Source: Escherichia coli (GTDB lineage: Bacteria > Pseudomonadota > Gammaproteobacteria > Enterobacterales > Enterobacteriaceae). Taken from it: 64,000 nucleotides of DNA. The stretch is taken from NCBI RefSeq assembly GCF_003334305.1, contig NZ_QOWS01000012.1; one strand, written 5' to 3'. The position numbers and the translations under genes are program-made. This document shows positions 22,133 to 33,287 of the stretch, in pieces. A model generated the notes under the pieces. The model saw only the letters and a program-made list of their open reading frames with translations, did no database searches and was not told the DNA's origin. The first letter of the stretch is position 1, and every line of letters begins with the position of its first letter.

Positions 22133-24028
<1,896 letters not shown>

Positions 24029-24072
24029 TAATCTTTACCCGGCAAACATGTGTTTTGCCGGGTTGTCGCTGA

Positions 24073-24942
24073 TTATTTTATTGGGCACAGTTTGTTACGA
24101 TCTGGAAATAGTGTTGCCAGCGAACCAGCCAGAGTTTTCCAGTCCGTAGCCATTTTTTCTGCTTGTGCAGTTGTTATTACTGCACCTTGTTGTTTAATAA
24201 GCTCATCCTCCACTCTGGTATAGTGAATAATGGTAAAATCCGTAGAGGACCATTTATCCTTAGAGAACATCTTCGTCATCGCATGAATGTTTGCTTGCCC
24301 GTCATCGATAAAAACAATCGCGTCATATTTGTTCCCCATTTTATCCAGCATATAATCGAGAATTACGCCTTTATCTTGCCCGGAAGAAAAAAATACCCCC
24401 TGGCTGTACAGCCATGACCGTTTGAGTTTCCCTTTTTCAAAGGGTGGCAAAGTATCCTCTTTCTTCCTGAGTGCGGAAGACGAAAAATCAATGCCGTTTC
24501 GCTTTAATTCCCGCAATGTCGGAAAGAGAGTATCCGGTGCACGGGATGTCAGAGCAAAAGCGGTATGCTTTTGTTGCCACTGTTTTAACATTGTCGGTAA
24601 CTGTGGCTCGGTAAGCTGCATAGGGCTAAGTTCGTAAAGCATACTGATTGTATTTTCATACAGGCAGGGAACTTTTTGCGAGTCATCCGGCTTTAAGGGC
24701 AATTTATCGGTTTACCATTGATACCAGATATCACCGCCAATGCGTGTGCCACTCGTTAATAACGTATTATCAATGTCAAAAACCAATAATATCTTATCGG
24801 ATGGATAGAGAGTTTCCTTTTCGGTGATAATTTTACTGACCGCACTATATTCGCCAGTAACTATATTTTTTACCTGTGCGTAAGATAAAGCTGGCAGAGC
24901 AGAGAGTATCATCCAGAGAATGATTTTAAATTTATTATTCAT
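24073..24942 (-). pseudogene. Secreted HAD-superfamily phosphatase interrupted by one in-frame TAA (24712-24714)
   Basis: ORF 24712-24942 carries signal peptide plus HAD motif I DIDNT; ORF 24073-24702 continues in the same frame with motif IV FIDDGQ; the two are separated only by the stop. Confidence 0.65.
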
Positions 24943-24955
24943 TTTTTATTCCAGA

Positions 24956-25690
24956 TTAGAAAGTATAAGTCAGACCCCAGCGCCAGCGGATTTGGCGATT
25001 ACTTGATGTTTTATCCACACCTTTATAATCCGCAATACTCATATAGGGTATCCACGATCCCATTTTGTACCCTACTTTAAATGATGCGGTATAGTTTTTA
25101 TGGCCATCATTCCAGGTTAAATAACCATTATTGTAATAGACCAGGTTTAACTGATATTGGAAGTTGGTTTTTTGTGGTCGATAGTCGATCCACACATCGT
25201 AACGGCGGTTATTACGATCATCGTTGCCATAACCTTTGGATTTATCGGTAGCTTTATCCATGTCATAACGAAAACGACCCGAAACTTTCCATTCTTTGCT
25301 GAAATCATAACCCGCAGAAAGACCATATTCGTAAGTTGACCAATATTGCGTGGTATCAAGCCAGAACATGGGTTCTAACCAGAATTTTTTGTCATCCAGC
25401 GGCTTAAAGCGGTAAACAACAGATAATCCTGTTCCGTTATTGCCAAATTGTGAGGGGTCCCACTTATCTTTATCACCTTCATCGGTGTTATAGCGTAATT
25501 CTCCCATCAAACCGATACCATTACTAAAAAATGTACCAAATTCAACGCGGTCCGCGTGGGTGCGAGTATCATCAAGATACTCATGACGATAATCAATAAA
25601 TCCATGCGGCTGTTCTGCACAGACTAGTGTAGGTGACAGGCAGGATAACATTGTTATTCCTGCAAGTGATATTTTAAGATAAGAATTCAT
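24956..25690 (-). CDS. KdgM/NanC-family small outer membrane porin (tentative)
   Basis: 244 aa; signal peptide; alternating aromatic/hydrophilic beta-strand pattern; C-terminal ...WGLTYTF. Confidence 0.6.
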   Translation of the reverse strand: MNSYLKISLAGITMLSCLSPTLVCAEQPHGFIDYRHEYLDDTRTHADRVEFGTFFSNGIGLMGELRYNTDEGDKDKWDPSQFGNNGTGLSVVYRFKPLDDKKFWLEPMFWLDTTQYWSTYEYGLSAGYDFSKEWKVSGRFRYDMDKATDKSKGYGNDDRNNRRYDVWIDYRPQKTNFQYQLNLVYYNNGYLTWNDGHKNYTASFKVGYKMGSWIPYMSIADYKGVDKTSSNRQIRWRWGLTYTF

Positions 25691-25785
25691 AATATTCCCT
25701 TTCAGAATAAAATATATTTTTGGTGATCGAATACACCATCTGATGATTCCAGGTATTAGAATGTTTTTTTATCTATAGTTTGACT

Positions 25786-26910
25786 TTAAATTTTAAGTTT
25801 GTTTTCCTTATCAATGAATAGATAAAATTTCGTCTGTTGATGGGGCTGGAAATTATTATCAGATACAAATATTAACGATGTATGCCCATCAATCAGAGGA
25901 CCGAAGGTTACCCCTTCAATACAATCCGCAGAGGAAGTGTAATCAGCAAAATCAATTAATAATTTTTTACTGACGGGTTGTAACGTGGATTTATTGGACC
26001 AATCTTGCAGACTGTCAATATCCTTGATATCGCTGGCAGCAGTTAAATCGACCATATAAACTCTGACAGAGTAATCCCAGTCATTGAACCCAGCACTGAC
26101 GTTTCTGCCGGAACGTTCGATGACCAACAATTGGTGATCATTCAGCGCCAGGACCTCGGATACGCCATTATCATTAATACCGAACTTACTCACTTGCGGA
26201 ACAGGATCAGTAATATAGAGATATTCATGCAATTGCTTTGAAGGTCGACCGTCTGCATCTATAGAAAATTGCAGTAAGCGTGATGTACCTGAATTTATTG
26301 GACTTGCAATAGGCCCATCCTGTTTAAGGCTGCTTTCAACGGCGATAAAAAGTGATTTTCCATCTGGTGTAACTGTCAGGCCCTCCCAGGCGTTGCCGCT
26401 GCGAATACCATTGCTGCTCTCTTTGTCAGAACTAATATTAAATCGAGCAGGAAATAAAGACGTAAAATCTTTCTCCATTACGCCATCGAGAGTGCTCAGA
26501 CGCAGTGGAGCACCTAACTCCGAACTCCATAGTAATGACTTACCATTGTGTGTCAGGGCCAGACCTTCGGCATCCACCGTATTGGTCACGAAAGGCTGCT
26601 GTTTTGCATCAAGCAGTGGACGCTGGTTGAGAAAATTCACTTGCTCAATGCCCCTGGATGATACCTGTATTTTTAGTGTATAAAGACTGGCATCTCCTTC
26701 TTTATTATTGTTTCTGCTATCGTTAATAGCATAGAAAATATTTTTTTTTGCATCAAATGTGATGGCTGATAGCCCCGCGATTGTAACATTGTTCTGTTTT
26801 TCTCCCGTCCGGAAGTTGAACTCACCAGCATAATGAAGAAAACTGTTTGCCTGCGCTGTTGTGCATAACAGCGGTAATGCCAGAAAAATAGCGGCATGTC
26901 TTATTTTCAT
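25786..26910 (-). CDS. Secreted protein, probably beta-propeller; phytase-like/esterase family assignment tentative
   Basis: 374 aa; signal peptide MKIRHAAIFLALPLLCTTAQA; repeated EGL..T.DGKSL-type segments. Confidence 0.55.
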   Translation of the reverse strand: MKIRHAAIFLALPLLCTTAQANSFLHYAGEFNFRTGEKQNNVTIAGLSAITFDAKKNIFYAINDSRNNNKEGDASLYTLKIQVSSRGIEQVNFLNQRPLLDAKQQPFVTNTVDAEGLALTHNGKSLLWSSELGAPLRLSTLDGVMEKDFTSLFPARFNISSDKESSNGIRSGNAWEGLTVTPDGKSLFIAVESSLKQDGPIASPINSGTSRLLQFSIDADGRPSKQLHEYLYITDPVPQVSKFGINDNGVSEVLALNDHQLLVIERSGRNVSAGFNDWDYSVRVYMVDLTAASDIKDIDSLQDWSNKSTLQPVSKKLLIDFADYTSSADCIEGVTFGPLIDGHTSLIFVSDNNFQPHQQTKFYLFIDKENKLKI

Positions 26911-26939
26911 GATATTTACCTTTGTGTATGTATCTGATT

Positions 26940-27854
26940 TTAGTCGTGTTGTGAAAGAAAAAGATTAACTTCCGATGGTGTCGCCAGATGACCTCTGGCA
27001 CCTAATGCAGTAATATTTATTGCTGCAGTGGCAGAAGCAAATTTTAGTGCTTCAATTAAGGGCATGTTTTTTATTAAGCTATAAACAAATGCACCATTAA
27101 AAGTATCTCCAGCGCCAGTGGTATCAATAATGGGAATTGTATAGCTACCTATTTTTACTTGCTCATTGCCTTTGACTGCAATTACTCCCCTAACATCCAG
27201 CGTAACCACGACAGCCTCAAGTTGATACTCGTCTTGTATATCATGCAGAAGTGTAAAATCTGGCTCTGCTGCATAGCCACGAATAAAACCGTCATAATTA
27301 AATATCGCAATATCAGCAAGGTGTAAAATTCTGGCAAGGTGTTCAGGTGTTGCAATGATATGAGGCTCAATATCAACGACAACTTTTGTCATCTGGCTAC
27401 GGGAATATTCGGCCAGCATACGAAATTTCTCGATATCTGCTGGCATCGTATAATAATAACGGCTTTGCGCAATTGCCTGCAGGGCTTTTTCTTTATCCCA
27501 CTCATGATCACTACCAGGCGAGTAAACCAACGTTTTTTCACCTAATTCATCAATAAAGATAATCGCGGTATTGGCAATCAATTCCGGAATTACCTGAACG
27601 AAATCACAATTTACATGATATTTTTTAAATCCATCAAGAATGATCGAGGCTGAATGATCATTGCCCACACATGAAACAGATACCACATTGAGACCCAGTT
27701 GTCCCATCGCACAGGCACTGTTGGCGACTGTGCCGCCAGCTTGTTCACCCAGACGTGTCCCGACCACTTTACCGCCACGAGTGGGGAGTGACGGGATAGA
27801 TAAAAAAATATCTATATTTCCACTGCCTAAAGCGGCGACATCAAATTTCTTCAT
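26940..27854 (-). CDS. PfkB-family carbohydrate kinase
   Basis: Starts MKKFDVAALGSGNIDIF at ATG 27854 with gggaga SD; C-terminal PfkB signature DTTGAGDTFNGAF. Confidence 0.8.
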   Translation of the reverse strand: MKKFDVAALGSGNIDIFLSIPSLPTRGGKVVGTRLGEQAGGTVANSACAMGQLGLNVVSVSCVGNDHSASIILDGFKKYHVNCDFVQVIPELIANTAIIFIDELGEKTLVYSPGSDHEWDKEKALQAIAQSRYYYTMPADIEKFRMLAEYSRSQMTKVVVDIEPHIIATPEHLARILHLADIAIFNYDGFIRGYAAEPDFTLLHDIQDEYQLEAVVVTLDVRGVIAVKGNEQVKIGSYTIPIIDTTGAGDTFNGAFVYSLIKNMPLIEALKFASATAAINITALGARGHLATPSEVNLFLSQHD

Positions 27855-27858
27855 AGTC

Positions 27859-28857
27859 TTATTTCTCCCTATGGCTAACGCGTTGCCCGCCTGCGTCGAC
27901 ATAATCACAACTTAAATGCCAGCACATTTCATATAACCACTGCATGACCAGAAATAAATTGTTGGACTCACTGGCATCAGGTATAAAACTGATTAATTCT
28001 GCTGTCGCTCCCTGTTCAACAATTGCTTTTTGGGTTGCAATGTAAAATGGGTACTCGCGGGATGTAGCTGGCAGTAAAAAATAATGCTGACCGACACCAG
28101 CCTGATGTAAGCGTAATGAATGATAAAATTCTTCCAGTGGAAAGGCTGTCGCACGAATCTGTGGGCCGCAAGAAAGTAAATTGCTCCCCGATATTGCTAG
28201 TCCCCAACTTAAGCCACTCCCCAGAAACGTTATCTCTTTTTGTTGGTAAAAATGGCGCTTCTTTTGCTGCCAGTGCTGATTAATCTGGCTAAATTTCCCT
28301 TCTAAATCCTCTTCAATTTGCAGTGGTGTTAAGCCTGGACATAAGTTTTGCGCTAAGCGCAGGAGGGTATAAAGTGTGACGCTACTACTTTGCGTTGGAA
28401 TACCCTGCTTATTCGCCCATGTATAGAGCATGTTTTCTGTTATTGCGCAAAATGGTGTTCCAGGGCAATTCGTCACACCCAGCACTTGCGCGTTTGAGCA
28501 TACTGCGTGGCTAAGGGCGTCAACGGTCAGTGATGGTCTGCCACTTGCGCTGAGAATAATGATCAACGTTTCTTTCTGATAACGGGTTAAATCAGTCTGA
28601 AGAAAATCCCACGTTTGCAATGCGGAACAAAACAGATGTGTGTATTTCCCCAGCCAGGCGGCGGCACATAGTGCCACCGTCCAGGAGTCGCCCGATCCCA
28701 CTATACAGACGCGTTCAACAGCACGTTTATCGAGCTGAACAGATGAAAAACATTCACCCCAGATAGCTGCCAAATGGCGTAGCGCTGCCGCCGTTGCATT
28801 TATTTCCTCACGAGTTTGCGCTAATGGCATAACAGGAGCACGGGCTGGCATGTTCAT
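27859..28857 (-). CDS. Double SIS-domain sugar-phosphate isomerase/deglycase-like protein (FrlB/AgaS-like)
   Basis: 332 aa; two SIS-like halves (VGSGDS..., ILSASG...; FLGSGLSWG...); start ATG overlaps upstream stop (TAATG); 4 nt before kinase start. Confidence 0.7.
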   Translation of the reverse strand: MNMPARAPVMPLAQTREEINATAAALRHLAAIWGECFSSVQLDKRAVERVCIVGSGDSWTVALCAAAWLGKYTHLFCSALQTWDFLQTDLTRYQKETLIIILSASGRPSLTVDALSHAVCSNAQVLGVTNCPGTPFCAITENMLYTWANKQGIPTQSSSVTLYTLLRLAQNLCPGLTPLQIEEDLEGKFSQINQHWQQKKRHFYQQKEITFLGSGLSWGLAISGSNLLSCGPQIRATAFPLEEFYHSLRLHQAGVGQHYFLLPATSREYPFYIATQKAIVEQGATAELISFIPDASESNNLFLVMQWLYEMCWHLSCDYVDAGGQRVSHREK

Positions 28858-29933
28858 TATTTCTCCTGTGCCTGTACTGCAAGCAATGTCAGACCCGATG
28901 CGATCGCTTCAACATCGAAATCTTTATTATTTACGGCGCGGAAAAAGGCATATTTATCTTCAGGGAGCGCATCAAAACCGCGCCATGCCCCTGCAATTGC
29001 GCCTGCCATCGTAGCGATGCTATCGGTGTCATTGCCAATATTGGCGCAGGCATGGATGGTTTCCCAGGGTTCTCCTTTGCAGTACAGCAATAGACCGATT
29101 GCCGCAGGAATGGATTCATGGGCGGCAACAGAGTTACCAACCAAACCTTCCATTTCTCGCAGACAAGACTCCAGATCATTGGCACGTCTGGCGATGTCCG
29201 CTGCAAGTTGGATGCGCATGGCGATAGATGGCCCTGCTACACATCGTGCATATTGTTTGGCCAGGCGTTCGCCGTAATTCGCTCCCCAGATTGCGGCATC
29301 CAGTAATGATGTGAGCGAGGCTTCTGGTAACATAGCCTGCGATGTCGCTGCAGCGATGGCGCAAGCGCTGGCAATCGCAATATTGGTGTCATGTGAAGGT
29401 AGGCAAGTTATTAACGCCAGGCGACACGCTTTTTCTTTCTTGCCAGGCCAGATCAATCCTGCCGGGGCTACACGCATTCCTGCGCCATTCGTGGTGCCGA
29501 CATTGGGGGCCTGACGAGAAGATGTTCCAATACGCCCAATGGTGTTTGTTGGTCTACCTTCTTTTAGTGCCTTGACGATTTGTTCTGTTGTGGGGCCTTT
29601 ATAATTTGCGTAGGGCTGCATATCGGCCCAACGCAGAAGACAAGCTAACCAGTCATTATTGGTGAAGTTATCAAATCCAGCCTCAATTAACCCTTCTGAA
29701 AACACATACATTTGGCTGGAATCGTCGGTGATAAGTCCTGCAACACCATTTAATGAGCCAGCAAAGGTATCGGCAGGAGGAGAAACAAAGGCATTTAAAA
29801 AACCTCCCCATTGAGTTTTTATTTCATCAATGCTGTAGAGTTCAGTCGCTGCGCCTAATGCATCGCCCATACCTGCGCAGGCTAAAGAACCTAATATTTT
29901 GTTATAAATTACGGCTTGTTCTATTTTGTTCAC
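28857..29933 (-). CDS. ADP-ribosylglycohydrolase-family protein
   Basis: 358 aa; N-terminal GSLACAGMGDALGAATE and C-terminal IGNDTDSIATMAGAIAGA typical of the family. Confidence 0.7.
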   Translation of the reverse strand: MNKIEQAVIYNKILGSLACAGMGDALGAATELYSIDEIKTQWGGFLNAFVSPPADTFAGSLNGVAGLITDDSSQMYVFSEGLIEAGFDNFTNNDWLACLLRWADMQPYANYKGPTTEQIVKALKEGRPTNTIGRIGTSSRQAPNVGTTNGAGMRVAPAGLIWPGKKEKACRLALITCLPSHDTNIAIASACAIAAATSQAMLPEASLTSLLDAAIWGANYGERLAKQYARCVAGPSIAMRIQLAADIARRANDLESCLREMEGLVGNSVAAHESIPAAIGLLLYCKGEPWETIHACANIGNDTDSIATMAGAIAGAWRGFDALPEDKYAFFRAVNNKDFDVEAIASGLTLLAVQAQEK

Positions 29934-29946
29934 AATATTCTCTCTG

Positions 29947-30699
29947 TTACACGCTAAAACTGTCTTTTGTAATTCGTGCTTTGTAGGAGTACCGACTTGC
30001 GGGATAAACCATCTCTACATACTCCATTGGTTTACGTTCCACGGATAACGTGACGCGGGTACAACTTAATACGACGTCATCGGCAGTCAGTTCCAGTAAT
30101 TGACGCTCAAGGGGCGAGGGAAGCCGGGCAGAGATAATCTCCGTTGCTTCTAAAGGTTTAATAGCGAGTTTTTCTTCCAGTAAAATATAGAGCGAACCCG
30201 TCGCCAGCAGCTCTTCCAGAGTTATTTCTTGTCCGTCATTTAACGCAAGCCATGATGTCTGAATACCCAGCGGCGTACTTCCCATATAGCGAATGCGTTT
30301 TATACAGAAAACGGTATGGACATGGATATCAAGTTCGAGATTTTTTCTGATAATATCACTGAGAGGAATATAACCTATTTCAAGAATATTCTGTGCCGGT
30401 ACGCCACCACGAGCCTTAATGTCATCAGTAAAACTATGTAATAAATGATTTTCCCGACTGCGAGCCGGTAATGTAAATGTTCCTTGCCCGTGGACACTAT
30501 GCAGGTATCCGCGTTGTTTCAAACTTTCTATTGCTTTCCGAATTGTTGTTCTGCTGCTTAAAAAATGTTCAGCCAGTTCTCTTTCTGTTGGTATAGCTTT
30601 GCCTTCTTTCCATTCACCGTTATCAATTTTTTTCTTTATTTCATCAAAAATTTCACGATGCTTTAGCTGACCTTTACTGGCTTTATAAATTCTTATCAT
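29947..30699 (-). CDS. GntR/HutC-family transcriptional regulator
   Basis: 250 aa; N-terminal winged-HTH (PTERELAEHFLSSRTTIRKAIESL) and UTRA-like C-terminal domain; first gene of the minus-strand operon. Confidence 0.8.
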   Translation of the reverse strand: MIRIYKASKGQLKHREIFDEIKKKIDNGEWKEGKAIPTERELAEHFLSSRTTIRKAIESLKQRGYLHSVHGQGTFTLPARSRENHLLHSFTDDIKARGGVPAQNILEIGYIPLSDIIRKNLELDIHVHTVFCIKRIRYMGSTPLGIQTSWLALNDGQEITLEELLATGSLYILLEEKLAIKPLEATEIISARLPSPLERQLLELTADDVVLSCTRVTLSVERKPMEYVEMVYPASRYSYKARITKDSFSV

Positions 30700-30717
30700 G
30701 ACAAAGCCTCATTTCAA

Positions 30718-30729
30718 GTGGTTGATACC
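30718..30729. promoter_or_regulatory. Candidate HutC-type operator TGGTTGATACCA upstream of the GntR gene
   Basis: TGGT-N4-ACCA palindrome about 20 bp upstream of the regulator start codon. Confidence 0.35.
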
Positions 30730-30881
30730 AACTTTACATTCTTTTATTTTTATTGCGCAGTATGCTTATTTGTTATCTGTGACATAAAACAGGAAAAACC
30801 ACATTTATTAATAAATATCATGCGGTTAAGTGAAATTGGTTTTTATGTGATGCTGCTCAATATTAACTCAGTGGTTTGTTG

Positions 30882-30893
30882 TGGTATCTACCA
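30882..30893. promoter_or_regulatory. Candidate HutC-type operator TGGTATCTACCA upstream of the symporter gene
   Basis: Second TGGT-N4-ACCA palindrome about 95 bp upstream of the transporter start. Confidence 0.35.
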
Positions 30894-30985
30894 ATGCATT
30901 TATTCTCAATCGTAAAGTTATGTGCTGAATGAGTTCCGATACATTTGTTTTTAATATAATTTCATGTGATTAATGAGTGCTGTGT

Positions 30986-32317
30986 ATGAAACTGACAATA
31001 AATGAAAAGATAGGTTTTGGTGCCGGTGATATGGCCATTGCGATAGTAATGATGTCTTTAGCCATGATCATCACTTATTTTTACACGGATGTATTTGGTC
31101 TGAAACCCGTCGACTTAGGTATTCTGTTATTTTCTGTACGTATTCTTGATGCTGTGATTGATCCAGTTGTGGGAACAATGACAGACATAACGAATACACG
31201 TTGGGGAAAATATCGGCCATGGTTGCTTTTTATGTCAATACCGTTTGGGATAAGCATTTGGTTGATGTTCACCACACCTGATACCGATTATTCAGTTAAG
31301 CTTTTATGGGCCTGGGCTACCTATGTGTTACTTACCTTGACCTATACGTTAATCGCTATTCCTTATGTTTCATTAATCAGCGTTATCACGGATGATCCAC
31401 AAGAGAGATTGAGCGCCAATGGTTATCGTTTTGTTATGACAAAAATTGCCATGTTCGCCGTAACAATTATTGTTCCTTTATCTGCAATGTATCTTGGGAA
31501 GAATAACGTACAACTGGGTTATCAAATAGCAATGGGGACAATGGGTATTCTGGCAACGTGTTTATGCCTGTATTGTTTTTTTAGCGTGAGAGAGCGCATC
31601 TACCATCCAAAACCCAGTCTCGGTATGGCCGCGCAGTTTCGGTTACTGATCAAAAATGATCAATGGCTCATTTTGGGCGCTGTAATTGCGATCATTATGT
31701 TTGGCGGGATTATTCGTAACTCTGTCGCTGCATATTATGCAAAATATTACCTGAGTGGTGGGGATGCTTTAATTTCACCGTTTTTAACTTCAGGCGTGAT
31801 CGCCTCAGTTCTGGCTATGATCGCTTGCACCTGGCTTACTCGTCTCTATGACAAAATAAAAATATTTCGTTATACCCAATTACTGGCGTTCGTGGTGGGT
31901 GGTGCGATGTATTTCGTGCAACCAAATTCTATAGTGCTAGCTTTTACATTTTATATTGTGGTGACTTTCCTGACGGATATCCAGCTTCCCATTTATTGGG
32001 CATCCATTGCTGAGTCCGTGGATTACGGTGAAATGAAAACGGGGCAACGTGTTTCTGGCCTGGCATTTGGCGGGATTCTCTTTTTCCAAAAGTTCGGTAT
32101 GGGGCTGGCAGGGGGCTTTATCGGAATCGCTTTAGCCTATCTGGATTATCAACCAGGCGTAGAACAAACACCACAGGCGCTGTGGGGGATCTGCCTGTTA
32201 ATGACGATCATTCCCGCGATACTTAACCTGCTTACCGGACTCATCATGAGATTTTATCTGATTAATAATGAATATTACGAACAGATAAAAGCACGGTTAC
32301 AAACGGCGGAAGAGTGA
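30986..32317 (+). CDS. GPH-family (MelB/UidB-like) glycoside:cation symporter
   Basis: ~443 aa, ~12 hydrophobic helices; divergent from the GntR operon; GTG at 30977 is an alternative start. Confidence 0.75.
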   Translation: MKLTINEKIGFGAGDMAIAIVMMSLAMIITYFYTDVFGLKPVDLGILLFSVRILDAVIDPVVGTMTDITNTRWGKYRPWLLFMSIPFGISIWLMFTTPDTDYSVKLLWAWATYVLLTLTYTLIAIPYVSLISVITDDPQERLSANGYRFVMTKIAMFAVTIIVPLSAMYLGKNNVQLGYQIAMGTMGILATCLCLYCFFSVRERIYHPKPSLGMAAQFRLLIKNDQWLILGAVIAIIMFGGIIRNSVAAYYAKYYLSGGDALISPFLTSGVIASVLAMIACTWLTRLYDKIKIFRYTQLLAFVVGGAMYFVQPNSIVLAFTFYIVVTFLTDIQLPIYWASIAESVDYGEMKTGQRVSGLAFGGILFFQKFGMGLAGGFIGIALAYLDYQPGVEQTPQALWGICLLMTIIPAILNLLTGLIMRFYLINNEYYEQIKARLQTAEE

Positions 32318-32325
32318 AAATAAAT

Positions 32326-32352
32326 GGCCGGCAAGCAGCACCGGCCTCTTTT
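32326..32352. terminator. Terminator hairpin between convergent symporter gene and ygiN
   Basis: ggccgg-caagcagca-ccggcc followed by tctttt. Confidence 0.6.
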
Positions 32353-32360
32353 CAGAAATA

Positions 32361-32675
32361 TTAAATCCCTGGCTGCAGAATACGAATATTCATCTCCAGC
32401 ACGTCGCCTTTTACGGCTTCGCTGTACGCCTTCATGTGCGGGGTTTGCAGATGCGCTTCAAGATGCGCGATGCTTTCCCACTGCTCAATCATCACGATAG
32501 AATCCGGTGCCATAGACTGGAAACTCACGCCAGCAGCGCAATCCACCATTGGCGCATAGCCGTGGCAACCTTCTTCTTTCAGTACGGTTGGAACGATTTT
32601 AGCAAACTGATCCAATACCGCCTGACGGTGATGTTGACCAGGACGAGTACGGATTTCTGCGATTACGGTAAGCAT
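32361..32675 (-). CDS. ygiN: Quinol monooxygenase
   Basis: 104 aa ORF, ABM-domain size; upstream of mdaB. Confidence 0.9.
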   Translation of the reverse strand: MLTVIAEIRTRPGQHHRQAVLDQFAKIVPTVLKEEGCHGYAPMVDCAAGVSFQSMAPDSIVMIEQWESIAHLEAHLQTPHMKAYSEAVKGDVLEMNIRILQPGI

Positions 32676-32705
32676 GGTTAACTCCTTCTAAAGCCTGAGC
32701 TCTAG

Positions 32706-33287
32706 TTAACCAAAAATTTCCACAAGATGCTTGCGATATTCTTCAGTATAGCGGGGAACATCAGGCATTTTTATCACGTCATTAGCGATAAATGTCGGCA
32801 GCGGTTCCATACCGAGGAATTGGTTTGCTTTATGGAACGGCAGATACACACCGTCAACGCCAACGCCGTGGAAGAACTGATCTTTTTCGGTGAAGGCTTC
32901 CATTGGTGCGTTCCAGGTTAGAGAAAGCATATATTTTTTGCCCTGTACCAGGCCGCCGGAACCGTATTTTTTCGACGGATCTTTGCGGGTACGACCATCG
33001 CTGGCATACAGTGTTCCATGACCTTCGGTGAATACATCATCAATATATTTTTTCACTGTCCACGGCGCGCCCATCCACCAGCCTGGCATCTGCCAGATCA
33101 CCACATCAGCCCAGAGAAAGTTTTGTACTTCCGCTTTGACAACGTAGTCGCTGTCGGCGCGAACGATGCGGACATCATGCCCGAGGTCGCGCAGTGTGCC
33201 ATCCGCGACTTCGGTCAGGGTGTCGTTCAGTTGACCATTGGAGTGGGCGAATTTTTTCGCGCCGTTGATAATCAGGATGTTGCTCAT
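32706..33287 (-). CDS. mdaB: NADPH:quinone oxidoreductase MdaB
   Basis: 193 aa flavodoxin-like ORF. Confidence 0.9.
   Translation of the reverse strand: MSNILIINGAKKFAHSNGQLNDTLTEVADGTLRDLGHDVRIVRADSDYVVKAEVQNFLWADVVIWQMPGWWMGAPWTVKKYIDDVFTEGHGTLYASDGRTRKDPSKKYGSGGLVQGKKYMLSLTWNAPMEAFTEKDQFFHGVGVDGVYLPFHKANQFLGMEPLPTFIANDVIKMPDVPRYTEEYRKHLVEIFG

Follow-up and report, generated by a model that had tools for sequence, protein, structure and literature searches.

An accessory island between parE and ygiN of Escherichia coli that pairs an ARH-fold hydrolase with a PfkB kinase and may serve the breakdown of a ribose-linked compound

The genes described here lie in a 64,000-nucleotide stretch of an Escherichia coli chromosome (RefSeq assembly GCF_003334305.1, contig NZ_QOWS01000012.1), hereafter the window. 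Within the window, parE (22136-24028) and ygiN (32361-32675) flank 8.3 kb of DNA with a GC content of 37-48%. In E. coli K-12 the ygiN-parE spacer is only 47 bp long, and the 8.3-kb segment of the present strain is therefore an accessory island. An initial interpretation made from the letters of the DNA (the sequence-only reading) had singled out four genes at 26940-30699, which encode a GntR/HutC regulator, a hydrolase of the ADP-ribosylglycohydrolase (ARH) fold, a SIS protein and a PfkB kinase. These four genes are real, but the functional unit proved larger: it comprises eight genes at 24073-32317, including a divergent transporter gene and three downstream envelope genes that had been missed. 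The island was carried by 409 of 5426 complete E. coli genomes (about 7.5%), and every copy was chromosomal. No integrase was found among the open reading frames or annotation of the window, and the repeats found at the island ends were short and at chance level.

The four core genes are all encoded on the minus strand and are tightly packed, as had been claimed. The gntR gene is separated by 13 nt from the ARH gene, which starts with GTG. The stop codon of the ARH gene has one base in common with the start codon of the SIS gene (GAGAAATAATGAAC; TAATG), and an AGGAGA Shine-Dalgarno sequence lies 5 nt upstream of that start. A gap of 4 nt follows between the SIS and kinase genes, with GGGAGA preceding the kinase ATG, and the gene for a phytase-like protein starts 29 nt downstream of the kinase gene. 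The RefSeq starts agree for the four core genes. Profile searches returned matches to PF03747, SIS, PF00294 and PF00392/PF07702, so the four family assignments of the sequence-only reading were right. Between two E. coli lineages about 3% apart, pN/pS was 0.00-0.31 across all eight genes, and the island genes are thus under purifying selection. Because of these values, and because other genera have these genes in the same order, the grouping of the genes goes beyond chance. Promoter and terminator scans gave signal at or below shuffle expectation, and an Rfam scan of 23900-32800 detected no riboswitch or other RNA element. The features of the island are listed in Table 1.

Table 1 Genes and operator-like sites of the island, with positions in the window.
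Feature	Position	Strand	Basis or remark
DUF2608 protein, candidate secreted HAD-like phosphatase, pseudogene here	24073..24942	-	signal peptide, HAD motifs, RefSeq
KdgM-family outer-membrane porin	24956..25690	-	similarity to PF06178 protein; RefSeq 'porin'
Phytase-like beta-propeller, predicted periplasmic, putative phosphoesterase	25786..26910	-	PF13449, signal peptide
ARH-linked PfkB kinase, nucleoside-kinase-like sugar pocket	26940..27854	-	PF00294
Two-lobed SIS phosphosugar isomerase/deaminase-like protein	27859..28857	-	GlmS-domain profile and structural model
ARH-fold hydrolase, core enzyme	28857..29933	-	PF03747
GntR/HutC-subfamily regulator, presumed repressor	29947..30699	-	Pfam GntR and UTRA
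Operator-like palindrome TGGTTGATACCA	30719..30730	.	20 nt upstream of gntR
Second operator-like palindrome TGGTATCTACCA	30882..30893	.	93 nt upstream of transporter gene
GPH (glycoside-pentoside-hexuronide):cation symporter, divergent	30986..32317	+	TIGR00792; RefSeq start 30986

The ARH protein matched PF03747 over model positions 1-287 of 287 (170 bits, E = 1.1e-49). Its best relatives of solved structure were MJ1187 (E = 2.9e-21), for which we know of no substrate or function, and ARH3 (E = 3e-10), for which the sequence match spans residues 148-326 only. ARH3 is an O-glycosidase. In 24 ARH orthologues the motifs GDALGAxTE (GDALGAATE in the present protein, with E31), T69-D70-D71 and N301-D302-T303-D304 were invariant; by analogy to ARH3 and DraG, we take E31 to be the catalytic Glu and the Thr/Asp motifs to be the di-metal sites. 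The island protein has its fold in common with MJ1187 and ARH3 (human ADPRHL2/ADPRS), and likewise the di-metal motifs and the catalytic Glu of GDxLGxxxE, yet the genomic context of the island ARH is metabolic and not one of signalling. NCBIfam returned weak matches to DraG (42, with a cut-off of 337) and Tri1 (22, with a cut-off of 490). ARH-fold enzymes are familiar as erasers of ADP-ribosylation, and to our knowledge no catabolic role has been assigned to them.

Orthologues of the island ARH are widespread, with 48-85% identity. One genome per species was scanned, which yielded 65 loci; the counts that follow were taken within a 9-kb radius at the 51 loci whose ARH shared 40% identity or more with a seed. 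A PfkB kinase gene was found at 46/51 loci, an IU nucleoside hydrolase gene at 33, a Bmp ABC importer at 27-31, a phytase-like gene at 21, a SIS gene at 18 and a TonB receptor gene at 16, and minimal clusters of importer, ARH and kinase occur in Rhizobium and Mitsuaria. These counts indicated that the constant core of the system is importer, ARH and kinase, and that SIS is an accessory. The Providencia and Kosakonia clusters hold an adenosine-deaminase-like gene, MFS_2, KdgM, GntR, ARH, SIS, PfkB, a phytase-like gene and UshA, and the Vibrio cluster holds a 5'-nucleotidase gene, Tsx, GntR, Bmp-ABC, ARH, SIS and PfkB. Clusters of Herbaspirillum and other Burkholderiales consist of a TonB receptor, GntR, Bmp-ABC, ARH, PfkB (often two), an IU nucleoside hydrolase and a phytase-like gene, and in Chloroflexi three or four nucleoside hydrolases surround ARH, together with SIS, PfkB and PRAI. 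The UshA neighbour was well over its cut-off (739 bits against 600); the adenosine-deaminase-like neighbour was barely over the cut-off of TIGR01430 (217.6 against 216.55) and under that of NF006848 (263 against 426). These nucleoside-type neighbours suggest that the substrate is a nucleoside-like riboside and not an Amadori sugar. Many carriers of the cluster are plant-associated, among them Herbaspirillum, Kosakonia, Rhizobium and Nitrospirillum.

A much expanded system was seen at three loci of marine or sponge Chloroflexi (L008, L025, L056), where the genes around ARH encode three or four paralogous IU nucleoside hydrolases, PfkB kinases (three), SIS proteins (two), PRAI and an M20 peptidase.

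The island kinase matched PF00294 (E = 7.7e-43) and carries a GAGDT catalytic motif at residues 247-251. It scored below the ribokinase cut-offs (142.5 against 299.65 for TIGR02152 and 129.8 against 341 for NF008353), below that of the FrlD model NF007321 (44.4 against 247, with only the C-terminal 76 residues aligned) and far below that of the pseudouridine kinase model (21.6 bits against 540). Two PfkB orthogroups were present among the ARH clusters, and both were aligned to E. coli RbsK, which has ten ribose-binding residues and D255 as the catalytic residue (PMC13432705). The island kinase is orthologous to the kinase encoded directly after ARH in other phyla. Kinases linked to ARH keep D16, G41-G42, N46 and GAGD255 of RbsK, with N14 variable, and invariably show E143P, K43T or K43P, M140Y and E190G. 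The ribose ligands of RbsK (UniProt P0A9J6, structure 1RKD) we take to be residues 14-16, 42-46, 143 and 255. Besides M140Y and E190G, the island kinase has K43T, G44V and E143P, and these last three changes leave its ribose-ligand set incomplete. The second Burkholderiales kinase, a true ribokinase, retains every RbsK ribose ligand. The equivalents of K43 and E143 are likewise lost in YegV of K-12. In PfkB nucleoside kinases the furanose-diol and catalytic residues are kept and the anomeric-side residues are lost. Because its pocket residues follow this pattern, the island kinase would act on a ribosyl group that is still bound to its partner. On the strength of these aligned residues we tentatively favor an order in which the kinase would phosphorylate the riboside before ARH cleaves it, although we give this order somewhat less than an even chance.

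The SIS gene product had been described as a double SIS protein. Pfam detected a single SIS domain (5e-8), but the family profile aligned to residues 45-348 of 1moq, which cover both GlmS isomerase lobes (E = 2e-21), and the AlphaFold2 (AF2) model (pLDDT 90.9) was superposed by Foldseek on the GlmS isomerase domain with a TM-score of 0.77-0.80, so the description stands. In the profile ranking GlmS (2e-21) was followed by NagB-II (8e-17) and by 3eua, a B. subtilis FrlB-like protein (8e-14); against the NCBIfam GlmS model the protein scored 41, with a cut-off of 418. The two-SIS fold, the phosphate-binding Ser/Thr loops (GSGDS at residues 54-58 and SASGRPS at residues 103-109) and the invariant His246, which is equivalent to GlmS His504, are shared with the GlmS isomerase domain and NagB-II. 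GlmS has Glu488 and a glutaminase domain, whereas the island protein has Cys230 and no glutaminase domain. Every gamma-proteobacterial orthologue has Cys at this position, whereas Chloroflexi have Glu and Nitrospirillum has Ala. GlmS does not share the invariant residues R107, K150, R249 and R326. Of the core genes SIS is conserved least, with 33% identity to the orthologue at locus L009 (about 72% for ARH) and the highest pN/pS, 0.31.

Residues 10-11 of the SIS protein, Met-Pro, are invariant across phyla and follow a hydrophobic residue; the residues before them vary in length and sequence. A translation start at Met10 was considered and rejected, as the hydrophobic residue precedes it in all 11 orthologues and the annotated ATG has the strong AGGAGA.

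The regulator matched PF00392 (2.9e-17) and PF07702, the UTRA domain (7.5e-23). Its top NCBIfam matches, HutC, PhnF and TreR, were all under cut-off (106 against 220 for HutC). The window holds five copies of the palindrome TGGT-N4-ACCA, where 0.75 would be expected, and the 286-nt spacer between gntR and the transporter gene contains two of them. The palindrome is conserved, and usually paired, in the regulatory regions of orthologous clusters of Enterobacterales, Vibrio, Burkholderiales, Rhizobiales and Rhodobacterales, with the consensus TGGTACGTACCA in beta- and alpha-proteobacteria; the Chloroflexi and Nitrospirillum loci had no TGGT-N4-ACCA sites. In orthologous clusters the palindrome was also found upstream of the Tsx and deaminase genes, of TonB receptor genes and of a gene for a phytase-like protein. 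Through this shared site the genes for envelope and nucleoside functions are connected with the core of ARH and kinase. The HutC-type regulator is presumed to repress the island through the two putative TGGT-N4-ACCA operators.

A conserved protein of about 215-246 amino acids is encoded in some ARH-kinase clusters that lack SIS (L007 11808-12548 and relatives at L027, L036, L043-L046 and L053), often divergently from gntR with operator sites between the two genes. It has no confident Pfam match, and its C-terminal motif 'GYSGGI..NV...WIDMESG' is reminiscent of PRAI. An assignment of the 246-residue protein as PRAI was rejected as too weak (Pfam E = 0.04, hhalign probability 16%).

The divergent transporter matched TIGR00792 with 346.2 bits against a cut-off of 231.35, and MFS_2 genes occupy the same position in the Providencia, Kosakonia, Trabulsiella and Enterobacter clusters. 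The phytase-like protein has an N-terminal signal peptide and matched PF13449 (1.3e-67); its AF2 model (pLDDT 89) is all-beta. No PDB sequence match was obtained for it, Foldseek returned only generic beta-propellers with a TM-score of at most 0.39, and no characterized relative was found in the literature. The porin is 34% identical (E = 4e-44) to a protein at locus L005 that carries PF06178, and KdgM genes are also present in orthologous clusters. The DUF2608 translation begins with a signal peptide and contains 'FDIDNT' as HAD motif I, followed later by 'FIDDG'; codon 77 is an in-frame stop. RefSeq likewise annotates the gene with an internal stop; it is intact (289 amino acids) in E. coli FDAARGOS_1286, and an orthologue (PF11019) is present in the L009 cluster. 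Searches of PDB and NCBIfam with DUF2608 were without match. Because of the stop at codon 77, the periplasmic arm of the system may be partly disabled in the present strain.

For the four core proteins no NCBIfam equivalog exceeded its cut-off, and no paper on the present cluster was found in the literature; a paper on Salmonella RikA/STM3547 was considered as a match and set aside, its locus being unrelated. The identities of ARH, kinase and regulator to K-12 YegU, YegV and YegW are 31% (full length), 22% and 25%, respectively. With these scores and identities, the claim that the island is not an already characterized frl, fra, aga or yegTUV system held. Like the island, yegTUV with GgaR (YegW) combines a HutC-type repressor, a transporter, an ARH-fold enzyme and a PfkB kinase, but YegT belongs to the NHS family, whereas the island transporter belongs to GPH, and genes for SIS, phytase-like, KdgM and DUF2608 proteins are absent from yegTUV. 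By sequence comparison yegTUV is thus best classed as a distant paralogue, not an orthologue, of the island. It had been counted among the characterized pathways with a known substrate, which is wrong, as the functions of the yegTUV genes are still unknown (PMC10819704).

The frl (fructoselysine) and Salmonella fra (fructose-asparagine) systems share with the island a GntR/HutC regulator, a PfkB kinase and a two-lobed SIS protein of the GlmS/FrlB superfamily. FrlD and FrlB are, however, not orthologous to the island kinase and SIS protein, the transporter type differs, and the island lacks the FrlC epimerase and the FraE asparaginase. A parallel to the proposed logic is offered by pseudouridine catabolism, in which the PfkB kinase YeiC/PsuK phosphorylates the 5'-OH and the glycosidase YeiN/PsuG then releases ribose-5-phosphate; PsuG belongs to a different fold family, and the likeness is a functional analogy only. 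The rus loci of Bacteroidetes scavenge ribose from ribosides with ribokinase-type kinases, nucleoside hydrolases or ARHs, and importers (bioRxiv 10.1101/574913). They differ from the island in being of the SusC/D type and in having different regulators and true ribokinases; the ARH variants of rus loci are likewise uncharacterized.

The conserved synteny with transporters strongly supports a role in catabolism, as the sequence-only reading had proposed, or in salvage. We read the island as a repressor-controlled catabolic island of familiar type whose core pair of ARH and kinase is unprecedented. That the island was acquired horizontally and encodes the uptake and breakdown of a ribose-linked, nucleoside-like compound is, in our estimate, evenly balanced between true and false. 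Beside the observed families, gene order, synteny, operator conservation and purifying selection, we infer the substrate class and each chemical step as follows. An anionic, phosphorylated precursor would enter through the KdgM porin and would lose its phosphate in the periplasm to the phytase-like propeller and the DUF2608 protein. The neutral riboside would then be imported by the GPH symporter, and in other lineages by the Bmp-type ABC importer, as family and synteny suggest. Judging from its pocket residues, the PfkB kinase would phosphorylate the 5-OH of the ribosyl group with the partner still attached. The metal-dependent ARH would next cut the bond at C1 of ribose and release ribose-5-phosphate and an aglycone that is probably adenine- or adenosine-like. 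The GlmS-like SIS protein might convert a phosphosugar intermediate or by-product by aldose-ketose chemistry, and the HutC repressor would sense an intermediate of the pathway.

Several points weigh against this reading. The E. coli island itself encodes neither a nucleoside hydrolase or deaminase nor Tsx or a Bmp importer, and the nucleoside link therefore comes from its relatives. For GPH transporters and KdgM porins, glycosides and acidic oligosaccharides are more familiar as cargo than nucleosides, and the phytase-like protein is without a characterized relative. The role of SIS has no explanation in the model, and SIS is missing from most of the orthologous clusters. Locus labels came from tblastn with seed proteins, and the counts of PfkB, GntR and ABC genes may include bystanders. 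Finally, every island member is known from sequence or structure prediction, and the kinase-first order was read from aligned residues and the ligand set assumed for RbsK.

The same enzymes could act in the reverse order, with ARH freeing the sugar from the imported glycoside or riboside, PfkB phosphorylating the free sugar and SIS isomerizing or deaminating the sugar phosphate for entry into central metabolism, which is the classical sequence of hydrolase, kinase and isomerase. Such a route would be in keeping with the gene order ARH, SIS, kinase and would give SIS an obvious substrate; in addition, ribokinase was the best model for the kinase, the NxD, GG and GAGD motifs are retained, and the minimal clusters of Rhizobium and Mitsuaria consist of importer, ARH and kinase. 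The ARH-linked kinases, however, are systematically without K43 and E143, both of which the true ribokinase of the same clusters retains, and the Burkholderiales clusters hold this separate canonical ribokinase beside the ARH-linked kinase. Known ARH substrates bear a phosphate on the released ribose, which also counts against cleavage before phosphorylation. We regard the hydrolase-first order as unlikely. The analogy to frl and fra drawn in the sequence-only reading implies another chemistry, deglycation of an Amadori or glycosylamine conjugate, with the kinase acting on the ketoamine, SIS as deglycase and ARH removing an N-linked group. It agrees with the placement of SIS in the GlmS/NagB-II/FrlB superfamily (3eua) and its conserved His504 equivalent, and with a regulator of the HutC type, like FrlR and FraR; PRAI is an Amadori-rearrangement enzyme, and PRAI genes occur in Chloroflexi clusters and a weakly PRAI-like protein in clusters without SIS. 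The analogy is weakened in that the core of the system is ARH and kinase, that 33/51 clusters do without SIS, that its catalytic Glu is replaced by Cys, and that the kinase is ribokinase-like and far under the FrlD cut-off, with no model match to FrlB, FraB or AgaS. The surroundings of the genes also disagree, as they include no amino-acid-type transporter, epimerase or asparaginase and the neighbours are of nucleoside type. Nor does ARH take the place of an epimerase or asparaginase, as had been suggested; it is the centre of the system. Deglycation is accordingly held to be very unlikely.

Two further explanations assign ARH to other tasks. Were the island a yegTUV/ggaR paralogue for ADP-glucose or another nucleotide sugar, it would influence glycogen metabolism. 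The architecture of HutC regulator, transporter, ARH and PfkB is the same, ARH aligns with YegU over its full length, KdgM and UshA-type genes would suit an anionic nucleotide-sugar precursor, and an in vitro response of GgaR to ADP-glucose has been reported (PMC10819704). The low identities of kinase and regulator, the GPH instead of NHS transporter and the fact that nothing links the island to glucose make this explanation highly improbable. Reversal of protein or nucleic-acid ADP-ribosylation, in regulation, immunity or anti-phage defence as by DraG, Tri1 and DarG, would leave the neighbouring genes unrelated to ARH, and we find it scarcely credible. The protein is a member of PF03747 with intact active-site motifs and weak matches to DraG and Tri1, but these matches fall far under the cut-offs, no ADP-ribosyltransferase gene lies nearby, and a PADLOC defence search with six proteins gave zero matches. 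Moreover, ARH is coupled to kinase and transporters in 46/51 species, with a common operator.

Returning to the kinase-first breakdown of a riboside, one candidate substrate class is the O-ribosyl-adenosines. These compounds remain after complete phosphoester hydrolysis of poly(ADP-ribose), of the TIR products 2'cADPR, 3'cADPR and pRib-AMP, and of the tRNA modification Ar(p). Periplasmic phosphoesterases would make the ribosyl-adenosine, the kinase would phosphorylate its distal ribose, and the ARH3-like enzyme would cut the ribose-ribose O-glycosidic bond to give ribose-5-phosphate and adenosine, whose breakdown the linked deaminase and nucleoside hydrolase would complete. Such a substrate would provide a role for every enzyme except SIS. 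Infected leaves of Arabidopsis contain one of these compounds, 3'-O-beta-D-ribofuranosyladenosine, as a major metabolite (PMC6290457), and its linkage is the same as in 3'cADPR (bioRxiv 10.1101/2022.05.07.491051). That the island and the wider family of clusters with Bmp-ABC importers and nucleoside hydrolases form a dedicated O-ribosyl-adenosine pathway is nevertheless speculative, and we consider it distinctly unlikely.

An ARH-kinase pair kept from E. coli to Chloroflexi would imply a widespread ribosyl nutrient and a new metabolic use of the ARH fold. The identity of the substrate would give a lead on the long-orphan yegU and yegV genes of K-12 and would define a strain-variable nutritional trait of the E. 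coli genomes that carry the island. It could also reveal by what route bacteria get rid of adenosines with a ribose-ribose link that stem from poly(ADP-ribose) or TIR immune signals. The conserved operator and the pocket signature of the kinase make the riboside question directly testable.

Some observations concern the ends and surroundings of the island. In E. coli FDAARGOS_1286 (L077, locus 8694-8858), of a lineage with about 97% nucleotide identity, the island is followed by a gene for a TonB-dependent siderophore receptor and not by ygiN. In this lineage pS was 0.25 for gntR and 0.12 for the transporter gene, compared to 0.03-0.07 for the rest of the island. Because the TonB receptor gene replaces ygiN and these two genes are far more diverged, recombination at the gntR/transporter end is suggested. 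In E. coli MB06173 (hit H32), 15% of the island is left beside an IS1A transposase gene, which looks like IS-mediated loss. A GC-rich hairpin followed by a T-run lies at 32326-32346, where the transporter gene and ygiN converge; it is probably the terminator of ygiN and may act for the transporter gene as well. A second low-GC stretch at positions 6000-13500 of the window (39-43% GC) contains the yqiGHI fimbrial genes, yqiK and neighbouring genes; it is ordinary and is present at least in part in all E. coli genomes.

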